Source of the DNA: Candidatus Parcubacteria bacterium
GTDB taxonomy: Bacteria > Patescibacteriota > Minisyncoccia > UBA6257 > 2-01-FULL-56-20
Length of the DNA: 39,671 nucleotides
Assembly: GCA_041169145.1 (NCBI GenBank)
Contig: JBEEJO010000003.1
Coordinates: 1 to 39,671, forward strand
Direction of reading: 5' to 3'
Shown: positions 8,970-37,910 of the stretch, piece after piece
Position numbering within the stretch: position 1 is the first letter of the stretch
Layout of the letters: every line of letters starts with the position of its first letter
Notes under the pieces: generated by a model
The model's input: only the letters and a program-made list of their open reading frames with translations
Database searches by the model: none
What the model was told of the DNA's origin: nothing
Program-made: the position numbers and the translations under genes

Positions 8970-9074
8970 ACGTCGCCACGCTATTGCGTGGCTCTCTCAA
9001 AACCCTCGGTTTTGAGTCCGTTTCGCTCATTCCTCCACGGGGAACCGGTCGCGGTTCCCCGACCCCCTCCACTG
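8970..9074 (-). repeat. Three-hairpin structured element, copy A
   Basis: Minus strand GGGGTCGGGGAACCG-CGAC-CGGTTCCCCGTGGAGGA...CTCAAAACC-GAG-GGTTTTGAG...GCCACGC-AATA-GCGTGGC-GACGT; same architecture as 37812-37910. Confidence 0.75.
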
Positions 9075-9094
9075 TTCGAATCCCTCTCCTGCGC

Positions 9095-9136
9095 AAAAAG
9101 ATACGCTCCATCCCAAGGATGAAGCGTATCTTTTTT
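9095..9136 (-). terminator. Terminator downstream of tRNA-Leu
   Basis: 13-bp perfect arms AAAAAGATACGCT / AGCGTATCTTTTT. Confidence 0.7.
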
Positions 9137-9139
9137 GTG

Positions 9140-9223
9140 TGCCCAGGGAGGGACTCGAACCCTCAAGGCCGTGAGGCCACACGATTTTGAGTCGTGCACG
9201 TATACCAGTTCCGTCACCTAGGC
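9140..9223 (-). tRNA. tRNA-Leu(CAA)
   Basis: GCCTAGG/CTGGGC acceptor stem, anticodon arm CACGA-CTCAAAA-TCGTG, long variable arm, GGTTCGAGTCC T-arm; CCA not encoded. Confidence 0.95.
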
Positions 9224-17508: not shown

Positions 17509-17711
17509 AACGACACCTCATCTCTTTTGGACCCCGGCGGGTCATGCGCTGGATTTTTCTCTGAGCTCACTTTATACTGCACCGTGCGGCGGCGGAGGAT
17601 AGCGCCAGTCTCCGTTCGCATGCCCTCGTGCGCTTTCGGCCCGGTCCCGGCGCATCGTGGGCGTGTGACGGTCAGAAGCGTCGTGGAGTGGCACATTGAT
17701 CTCTCACCTTT

Positions 17712-17783
17712 GCGCCCTTAGCTCAGTGGTAGAGCGTCACATTGACATTGTGAAGGCCGTAGGTCCGATCCCTACAGGGCGCA
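17712..17783 (+). tRNA. tRNA-Val(GAC)
   Basis: GCGCCCT/AGGGCGC acceptor stem, TAGCTCAGTGGTAGAGC D-arm, TCACA-TTGACAT-TGTGA anticodon arm, T-loop TCCGATC; no CCA. Confidence 0.9.
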
Positions 17784-17858
17784 CAAAGGTGAGGGATCGA
17801 GCGCCGTGGTCGCCGGTACAAGATGGAATGGGCGCGAAGAAATTGAGGATGAAGAGTG

Positions 17859-17894
17859 GGGCACGTAGTTCAGTGGTAGAACGCGTTCCTGATA
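17859..17894 (+). pseudogene. Exact copy of the 5' half of tRNA-Ile
   Basis: 36 nt identical to 17947-17982, ending one base after the GAT anticodon. Confidence 0.9.
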
Positions 17895-17946
17895 TCACGC
17901 GGTCGTGATAGAAACGGTTCGCTCGGTTACAATAAAAATATGTTTT

Positions 17947-18021
17947 GGGCACGTAGTTCAGTGGTAGAACGCGTTCCTGATAAGAACGAGGCCGAAGGTT
18001 CGATTCCTTCCGTGCCCACCA
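17947..18021 (+). tRNA. tRNA-Ile(GAT)
   Basis: GGGCACG/CGTGCCC acceptor stem, CGTTC-CTGATAA-GAACG anticodon arm, GGTTCGATTCC T-arm, encoded CCA. Confidence 0.96.
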
Positions 18022-18053
18022 GATATTTTTATTGTTCCCTCGCTGCCGTTTCA

Positions 18054-18092
18054 AAGAACGAGGCCGAAGGTTCGATTCCTTCCGTGCCCACC
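18054..18092 (+). pseudogene. Exact copy of the 3' half of tRNA-Ile
   Basis: 39 nt AAGAACG...GTGCCCACC identical to 17982-18020. Confidence 0.9.
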
Positions 18093-18094
18093 CC

Positions 18095-18859
18095 GTGACA
18101 GAACCAGAGATATTGTATGAAGATGACGACCTTCTTGCGGTGAACAAGCCCGCGGGGCTTCTTGTTCATGGGTCGCGGAGCGCGAATGCTGAGGCGGAAG
18201 GCGGGCGCGCGAAAGGCGGTCCGCATATTGCACGCCACGGTTCGGAGGAGCGGCACGAGTCGACGCTTGTCGATTGGCTTCTCGCCCACCGTCCGGTTGT
18301 GAAGACTGTTGGGGACGACCCGGCGACCCGCCCCGGCATCGTGCACCGGCTGGATCGCGAAACGTCGGGCGTGATGATCGTTGCGAAGACACAAGCAATG
18401 TTCGATCGCTTGAAAGCCCTTTTCGCAGGCCGTGATATTACGAAAACCTATCTTGCGGTAGTTCGGGGAGCGATGCGGAGCGAGCGGGGGATCATAGAGC
18501 GTCCGATCGGTATCGTATCCGGTTCGGTTCGGCGGAGCATACACTCCACGAAAATGGTGAAAGACGCCGTGACGGCATACGAAGTGAAGCGCCGCGTGCG
18601 GCTGGCGAACGGAAGCGAAGCGACCGTTCTCGCGGTATATCCAAAAACGGGGCGGACGCATCAGATCCGCGTTCATCTTGCCTCACTCGGTCATCCGGTG
18701 CTGGGCGACCGGCTGTATGATAAGAGATCCAGGAGCGGCGATGTGCCCGCGCGCATGTTCCTTCATGCTGCGGCGATAGCCCTGAACCCGGAATCGGGAA
18801 AACGGCTGGTCATTGAAGCGCCGGTCCCGGCAGAATTCGCTCCATACTTATCCACATAG
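18095..18859 (+). CDS. RluA/RluD-family pseudouridine synthase (no S4 domain)
   Basis: ILYEDDD..AVNKPAG, catalytic HRLDRETSG, TGRTHQIRVH, GD.LY, LHA. Start taken at GTG 18095. Confidence 0.93.
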   Translation: MTEPEILYEDDDLLAVNKPAGLLVHGSRSANAEAEGGRAKGGPHIARHGSEERHESTLVDWLLAHRPVVKTVGDDPATRPGIVHRLDRETSGVMIVAKTQAMFDRLKALFAGRDITKTYLAVVRGAMRSERGIIERPIGIVSGSVRRSIHSTKMVKDAVTAYEVKRRVRLANGSEATVLAVYPKTGRTHQIRVHLASLGHPVLGDRLYDKRSRSGDVPARMFLHAAAIALNPESGKRLVIEAPVPAEFAPYLST

Positions 18860-37811: not shown

Positions 37812-37910
37812 CAGCGGGAAAGGGGTCGGGGAAACGGGAGTTTCCCCGTGGCGGAGCACACGAACCGATGGGTTCGTGGGAGCGGCTTGCTGTATGGCGA
37901 GCCGCGACGT
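37812..37910 (+). repeat. Three-hairpin structured element, copy B
   Basis: GGGGTCGGGGAAAC-GGGA-GTTTCCCCGTGGCGGA..CACGAACC-GATG-GGTTCGTG..GCGGCTTGC-TGTATG-GCGAGCCGC-GACGT. Confidence 0.75.

Follow-up and report, generated by a model that had tools for sequence, protein, structure and literature searches.

The nearest working analogue of the locus described here is the tRNA-dependent lysogeny of actinobacteriophages (Guerrero-Bustamante & Hatfull 2024, PMC10865867). As described there, an essential host tRNA gene is broken and not rebuilt, and a tRNA with matching isotype is brought in by the incoming element, which is an entire phage that has a tyrosine integrase of its own and a common core of ~10 bp. 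Islands and prophages in tRNA and tmRNA genes (Islander, PMC4383910; PMC9897764) likewise take a tRNA as their target and leave a working gene together with a displaced fragment; as these sources present them, they restore the gene by providing just its portion 3′ of the crossover, and a single fragment is left behind. Archaeal tRNA introns move between tRNA genes, and split tRNAs are also described (Fujishima et al., cited in PMC10714607). Such introns place an intervening sequence in or near the anticodon loop, have pairing ends and behave as mobile units; in the account given in PMC10714607 they rely on a splicing endonuclease plus a ligase, are excised from the RNA and do not contain a tRNA.

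Here we report a locus from a Candidatus Parcubacteria bacterium, in which an intact tRNA-Ile(GAU) gene is nested between the two halves of another copy of the same gene. We consider it likely that the locus is a "break-and-replace" tRNA cassette, i.e., a single 160-bp unit inserted into the resident single-copy tRNA-Ile(GAU) gene, with the inner gene as the working tRNA gene and the outer halves as dead remnants. In contrast to tRNA-dependent lysogeny, such cassettes span only 100–190 bp, lack an ORF, possess paired arms, lie in the anticodon, mostly show an overlap of 0–2 nt and are repeatedly nested. Unlike the islands, the insert supplies a whole gene, leaves both halves and has neither an integrase nor cargo genes; unlike in the archaeal intron systems, neither of the two processing enzymes was found in the source genome and the interrupted copy decays. 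We found no description of a bacterial tRNA gene nested in its own halves in open-access full texts and bioRxiv, and an insert of the break-and-replace kind is apparently unpublished.

MITEs and the palindrome-associated derivatives of IS200/IS605 elements are short, ORF-less units with pairing ends that generate little or no target duplication and depend on an enzyme acting in trans. The cassette is comparable in being short and ORF-less, with pairing ends and a presumed need for such an enzyme. However, it occurs in one copy per genome rather than many, has no fixed target-site duplication, conserves an internal bubble motif rather than its termini and bears a functional gene matched to its target; moreover, in contrast to the IS200/IS605 derivatives, no Y1 transposase is found in the carriers of the arms described below. 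CTX-type elements have no recombinase of their own and exploit the host Xer via a folded single-stranded hairpin with an unpaired central region. By analogy, the cassette, which lacks a recombinase and forms an imperfect hairpin in a genome whose sole tyrosine recombinase is Xer-type, might depend on the host in a similar way, although its target is the anticodon loop of a tRNA and not dif, and its junctions lie at the base of the stem and not at the bubble. Anticodon loops are also said, in work attributed to Williams in 2002, to serve as crossover sites.

The source genome (hereinafter G000) comprises 814 kb in 73 contigs with 56% G+C and is 91.6% complete. A plain ARAGORN run yields 44 tRNA genes; in its intron mode the program further reports, on contig C5 (c[17186,17865]), a tRNA-Arg(CCT) interrupted by a 585-nt intron, a call that looks spurious as this stretch reads by eye as ordinary coding sequence. 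The window, by which we mean the whole 39,671-nt stretch of DNA analyzed, contains the nested locus between tRNA-Val(GAC) and a gene for an RluA-family pseudouridine synthase, whose GTG start is 2 nt past the outer 3′ half (Table 1). An earlier sequence-only reading had proposed a 36-nt 5′ half, spacers of 52 and 32 nt around a full tRNA-Ile, a 39-nt 3′ half and a hairpin over the first breakpoint. Each of these elements is present, the halves being exact copies of the corresponding parts of the inner gene, and, as that reading also stated, the outer halves would make a second tRNA if joined. The two copies overlap by one base, A37. The shared base places the break at 36/37 or 37/38, and the insertion point in the anticodon loop of the resident gene reads GAT^AAG. 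The insert between the halves (52-nt arm, tRNA and 32-nt arm, together 160 bp) has no ORF, and no further copies of the arms lie outside the outer gene. Both tRNA callers, ARAGORN and Rfam, recognize the inner gene alone, as tRNA-Ile(GAT); the 3′ ends differ, with ACCA on the inner gene and ACCC (ACC then C) on the outer 3′ copy. Repeats that are exact over 36 and 39 nt cannot have arisen by chance.

Table 1. Features of the nested tRNA-Ile locus and of related elements, in window coordinates
Feature	Position	Strand	Remarks
Second-family element	9031-9098	-	behind tRNA-Leu(CAA) 9139-9223
Older nest around neighbouring tRNA-Val(GAC)	17680..17797	+	gene at 17712-17784; short inverted arms TCTCTCACCTTT / AAAGGTGAGGGA
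Decayed outer 5′ relic of tRNA-Val	17680-17699	+	ends in CACATTGA; alignment 16/20
Outer 5′ half of tRNA-Ile(GAU), nt 1-36	17859..17894	+	36/36 identical to 17947-17982; probable displaced remnant of resident gene
Left-end hairpin	17893..17910	+	TATCACG-CGGT-CGTGATA; 7-bp stem, 4-nt loop; straddles the break
Left arm X, 52 nt	17895..17946	+	conserved motif GGTTCGCTCGG at 17916-17926; pairs with arm Y
Promoter-like site in arm X	17905-17933		GTGATA-17-TACAAT; sigma-70-like; weak lead
Inner intact tRNA-Ile(GAU)	17947..18021	+	CCA encoded; ARAGORN; Rfam tRNA 75.6 bits
Right arm Y, 32 nt	18022..18053	+	conserved motif CCTCGCTGCCG at 18038-18048
Outer 3′ half of tRNA-Ile(GAU), nt 36-74	18054..18092	+	39/39 identical to 17982-18020; probable displaced remnant
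RluA-family pseudouridine synthase gene	18095..18859	+	TIGR00005 190.9 bits (cut-off 192.7); syntenic flank outside the insert
Second-family element	37815-37910	+	away from any tRNA; flanking direct repeat of about 23 nt

The nested order was checked on the graph contigs of three public runs from two studies (X1, X2 and X3, with X3 from the other study). The path from the outer 5′ half via arm X into the inner tRNA is bridged with zero mismatches in all three (X1 17865-17976, X2 17878-17976 and X3 17873-18011), and that from the inner tRNA via arm Y into the outer 3′ half in two (X1 17991-18083 and X3 17982-18083). No single record among the graph contigs of the three runs covers all 234 nt; by our own reasoning, the nested order is the sole path through the graph provided that each junction is used once. 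An artefact of assembly caused by the repeats would fit with the lack of such a record and with the contigs of several relatives stopping at tRNA-Ile. However, every junction is bridged by zero-mismatch records from two studies and the same architecture is found in independent genomes, making this explanation exceedingly improbable. In run X2, the depth over arm Y (window 18032-18058) is 1.93 as compared to about 10 alongside, and one contig of that run joins the middle of the tRNA straight to the downstream flank; the join could be either a population variant lacking arm Y and one 3′ copy or the outcome of graph simplification. Among the relatives, contigs terminate at a tRNA gene or within one in L271 and L272 (both G055), L288 and L289 (both G004), L295 (G033) and L300 (G041), the gene being tRNA-Ile in G055, G033 and G041; both G055 contig ends bear a second kind of Ile arms that is also seen in G022. 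Nested halves of this type probably break short-read assemblies.

Arms X and Y pair along their whole length. Their duplex has a basal stem of GAAACGG with CCGTTTC, a bubble with TCGCT on both strands between CGG/CCG and GG/CC pairs, and a distal A+T-rich stem of 13 bp that runs on into the acceptor stem of the inner tRNA. The X/Y duplex has a ΔG of −29.5, as compared to a shuffle mean of −12.6 and −21.5 for the best of 200 shuffles, and the fold with the paired arms has −89.3 kcal/mol (z −3.7). Because the two arms pair, the 160 bp can be taken as one unit comprising the hairpin, an arm, the tRNA and an arm, with the paired arms constituting terminal inverted repeats; G000 has only one locus with both arm motifs. 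Hairpins with other sequences occupy the equivalent left-end position in G003, G022 and two distant loci, L089 and L253. In the latter two, the sequences of the arm stems have changed, the distal stems differing from those of G000, yet their complementarity is kept: the arm pairing has a ΔG of −27.0 and −22.8, respectively, and, as in G000, lies past all 200 shuffles in each case.

Arm X also holds a sigma-70-like promoter-like site, the first hexamer of which sits in the 3′ strand of the left-end hairpin. By the same criteria, such a site is present within ≤35 nt upstream of 3 of the 12 nested-locus tRNAs tested, and we treat it as a weak lead only. Rfam families other than tRNA were detected neither in the window (gathering threshold) nor in eight nested loci (E ≤ 1). 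A comparison by eye of the left end with the core of the hammerhead ribozyme gave no fit, and a group I intron was discarded since Rfam shows no ribozyme core and only 84 nt lie outside the inner tRNA. Inspected by eye for a bulge-helix-bulge, the fold places the 5′ junction within a helix rather than in a 3-nt bulge.

The sequence-only reading had suggested comparing the locus in relatives, and we examined tRNA-Ile(GAU) loci in 47 genomes from the order to which G000 belongs. Arms of the G000 kind (type 1) adjoin tRNA-Ile(GAU) in six of these, all from one family and all at the same Val–Ile–rluA site; a seventh match, in G016, turned out to be the D-arm of tRNA-Val. The six carriers display all states of decay as well as multi-layer nests. 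G000 has the full nest, while G025 has the tRNA, arm Y and a 3′ half (38/38), and G029 the tRNA, arm Y and the 3′ half of another allele (33/39, with differing acceptor and T stems). G003, from the same genus as G000, has a 5′ half with a 22-nt D-loop insertion, arm X and the tRNA, with nothing downstream, and G023 shows arm Y and a decayed relic. In G022, there are two outer 5′ halves (acceptor GGGCGAC), arms of two kinds, an inner tRNA (acceptor GGGTATG), an exact 3′ half and an outermost end that is decayed; a mutated anticodon is seen among its outer halves. Thus, the exon-like outer halves are decayed, cut down or missing in all five carriers other than G000 (G003, G022, G023, G025 and G029). 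The one-sided forms, namely 5′ half–X–tRNA and tRNA–Y–3′ half, match what deletion between direct repeats would be expected to produce. The inner tRNA-Ile is identical between G025 and G029 (72/72), as compared to 56/73 for tRNA-Val and 209/319 for rluA. Within the genus of G000, the four tRNA-Ile(GAU) genes (G000 to G003; L001, L006, L007 and L286) are four different alleles, which are mosaics of acceptor, anticodon-stem and T-stem variants.

Beyond these relatives, a degenerate arm pattern matched at least 120 loci in a collection of genome contigs. Among the matches listed, one has a tRNA (L089, from a Candidatus Saccharibacteria MAG) and the others are chance matches in GC-rich genomes. 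The exact arm motifs likewise matched at least 120 loci in metagenomes, with one real locus among those listed (L253, on a metagenome contig). In a sample of the phylum, the full arm pair is present in 1 of 401 genomes, namely G000, and four viral contigs match the arm pattern, none of them with a tRNA. Both L089 and L253 hold a complete tRNA-Ile(UAU) cassette within its own halves, bounded by both arm motifs. Of 40 relatives of the L089 genome, one (G497) has the arms, which surround layer 2 of a three-layer nest; in G018 one arm motif remains.

These loci reveal an inverted polarity: the motif frame and the tRNA occupy opposite strands in each of the four UAU loci (L089, L253, G497 and G018) and share a strand in each of the six GAU loci. 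Read in the motif frame, the GAU genes are broken at GAT^AAG and the UAU genes at GTAT^AAG, and AT^AAG is present solely on the sense strand in the former and solely on the antisense strand in the latter. A longer shared target, the heptamer ATAAGAC, was trimmed to AT^AAG after L317. The arm frame tracks AT^AAG in 10 of 10 loci, which amount to two independent cases, GAU and UAU. Since the motif strand flips with AT^AAG, the frame follows a DNA word and not the direction of the tRNA transcript. As far as two independent cases go, this is suggestive of strand-polar targeting at the DNA level; a role for the arms in tRNA-sense RNA appears unlikely because their loop sequences would differ between the GAU and UAU cases. 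The junction duplication is 0–2 nt in most loci and 5–7 nt in L089, and in other cassettes the break is at 34/35 or 35/36.

Comparable nests surround other tRNA genes. The tRNA-Val(GAC) next to the Ile locus is directly abutted by inverted 12-nt arms, and the same arms delimit clear tRNA-Val(GAC) nests in two relatives, G001 and G007, that of G007 having a 5′ half at 32/32 and a 3′ half at 30/34. A nested tRNA-Ala(UGC) is found in G046. The Val and Ala nests share short arms starting with TC and finishing with GA and a break at 35/36. In G001, the outer Val relic aligns at 30/31 with the working allele of the sister species G002 and at 27/31 with its own inner gene, as is predicted by the replacement of a resident allele; outer and inner alleles also differ in G029, G022 and G007. 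In several nests, identity peaks beside the break. In addition, tRNA-Ala(CGC) on contig C71 of G000 (1926-1997) is flanked by the inverted arms ctctcaccctt and aagggtgagag, with relics resembling 5′ and 3′ tRNA ends farther out, and from its sequence looks like another old nest.

As a proposal, the break-and-replace reading has the following course. An ORF-less unit comprising the hairpin, arm X, tRNA-Ile(GAU) and arm Y would enter GAT^AAG of the resident gene, the inner gene would take over the tRNA supply and the outer halves would be left as dead remnants. Given that the arms stay paired while their sequences change and that the bubble is conserved, we infer that a folded, probably single-stranded form with the conserved 7-nt bubble is recognized by an enzyme supplied in trans. 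The newest inner copy would then be the next target, creating nests while the outer halves decay, and deletion between direct repeats would yield 5′ half–X–tRNA, tRNA–Y–3′ half or a clean tRNA. Once formed, the nested allele might also move among relatives through ordinary homologous recombination, for which the conserved tRNA halves would serve as arms. The match between cargo and target would follow from selection, as the disruption of a single-copy tRNA gene would be lethal unless a spare were supplied. In G000, either the insertion would be recent and independent, or gene conversion would keep the outer halves the same as the inner gene. Should the insert go back to the ancestor of the genus, the perfect identity over 75 nt needs explaining, because the X arms of G000 and G003 are alike at only 37/56 positions; arrival from elsewhere would presuppose either gene conversion or a donor whose tRNA is identical, because the copies in G000 are of the same allele and lack outer arms.

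No enzyme is linked to the cassette, which counts against this proposal, and there is no sign of current activity, since G000 has one copy of the arms and is the sole carrier of the full pair among the 401 phylum genomes sampled. The candidate enzyme would be the host Xer-type tyrosine recombinase, the only one seen in G000 (contig C22; best models XerC, XerA and XerD, all below cut-off), with a foreign HUH or homing nuclease being equally open. The Y1 HUH transposase (PF01797) has no match in G000; its genes occur in 14 of 61 relatives and in none of the six type-1 carriers. Neither a reverse transcriptase nor a TnpB zinc-ribbon domain was matched in G000.

The sequence-only reading had offered, as one of several options, an insert that brings a tRNA along and thereby rescues the one it broke, and it is this option that the evidence supports over the others. 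Local rearrangement, i.e., slippage or template switching around a hairpin-flanked tRNA followed by inheritance or homologous exchange and with no dedicated mobile element, would be in keeping with the halves and inner gene of G000 being one allele, the failure to find an enzyme, the single copy per genome and the highest identity lying beside the break in several nests. We nonetheless consider it unlikely: in a distant lineage the same arm motifs flank another isoacceptor and lie on the opposite strand, outer and inner alleles are unlike in four genomes, and a tandem duplication predicts outer arm copies, which are absent in G000. Quite improbable, in turn, is the collapsed remnant of one or two larger elements, of which the tRNA and the ends proximal to the attachment sites survive, be it a prophage or island with an anticodon-loop integrase or a case of tRNA-dependent lysogeny. 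There is precedent for integrative elements that split tRNA genes, with displaced fragments left over (PMC4383910; PMC9897764), and for phages that bring a replacement for the host tRNA they disrupt (PMC10865867). However, the two spacers pair together and show covariation among lineages, and complete cassettes of about 100–190 bp recur without element genes. The identity at the attachment site is 1 nt in G000, i.e., A37, with no multi-bp common core at both junctions; the insert holds no integrase gene, the sole tyrosine recombinase found is Xer-like, and the viral contigs with the arm pattern hold no tRNA. The notion of two collapsed islands in particular does not fit, with the spacers pairing as one unit and the same pair of motifs bounding distant cassettes.

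A genuine tRNA intron would require the outer gene to be expressed and the inner tRNA to be excised, whether by RNase P and RNase Z or by some other nuclease, with the halves joined or acting as a split tRNA. The break adjoins the canonical intron position, the arms bring the halves together, and these would form a perfect tRNA once joined. Yet we deem this very improbable: EndA (PF01974; control matches in four archaea) and RtcB (PF01139; control matches in 10 of 14 genomes) have zero matches in the 91.6% complete G000, Rfam offers no group I or other family beyond tRNA, and the UAU arm motifs, being on the opposite strand, would present other loop sequences in tRNA-sense RNA. Moreover, the outer halves decay, through the D-loop insertion in G003, the anticodon mutation in G022 and losses in G025, G029 and G023. 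The hint drawn earlier from the canonical 37/38 position is best seen as a coincidence in light of the other breaks at 34/35 or 35/36 and the lack of both enzymes. That the halves have been retained to serve as decoys, as was initially suggested, or as spare parts in the face of anticodon nucleases is scarcely credible; the perfect identity of the G000 halves is all that speaks for it, while in relatives the halves are lost or degraded and no nuclease or repair system is tied to the locus.

Were the break-and-replace reading correct, the cassette would be a minimal answer to the problem faced by a gene-targeting parasite, in that it carries a whole spare gene, unlike introns and inteins, which splice out, or islands, which rebuild the end of a gene. 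It would account for the half-genes around tRNA genes in tiny genomes, which confuse annotation and break assemblies, as well as for the mosaic tRNA alleles between sister species. It would also point to a recombination activity on folded DNA in organisms nearly devoid of mobile-element enzymes, and a site-specific insertion of about 100–160 bp without an element-encoded protein would be of interest to tool builders. More tentatively, and with some doubt on our part, these loci might represent a class of ORF-less selfish cassettes in Patescibacteria that home to anticodons with a spare gene. Their arm families would be specific to each tRNA and their folded strand, with its conserved bubble, would be read by a hijacked host enzyme, the lone Xer being the prime suspect. 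Successive rounds would produce Russian-doll nests and would drive the mosaic, fast-turning tRNA alleles within one genus, and a second hairpin family would perhaps use the same machinery.

This second structured non-coding family in G000 comprises elements of about 125–140 nt that lie behind many tRNA genes and may share the machinery of the cassette. The tRNA is followed first by a terminator-like hairpin, then by its 3′ end in inverted orientation, a conserved core of two hairpins and a direct 3′-end copy from the T-loop onward. Besides the two in the window (Table 1), elements are present on contigs C1, C4, C16, C20, C23, C24, C28 and C33, and none has a match in Rfam. Other partial copies of tRNA genes are also found in G000. 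Downstream of tRNA-Pro(CGG) on contig C16 (12158-12229), an 18/18 copy of the 3′ end lies at a distance of about 166 nt, the sequence in between being unlike the second family. On contig C25, tRNA-Gln(CTG) (c[2317,2391]) has a 21/21 copy of its 5′ part up to the D-loop about 97 nt upstream, with a G+C-rich hairpin between the gene and the copy.
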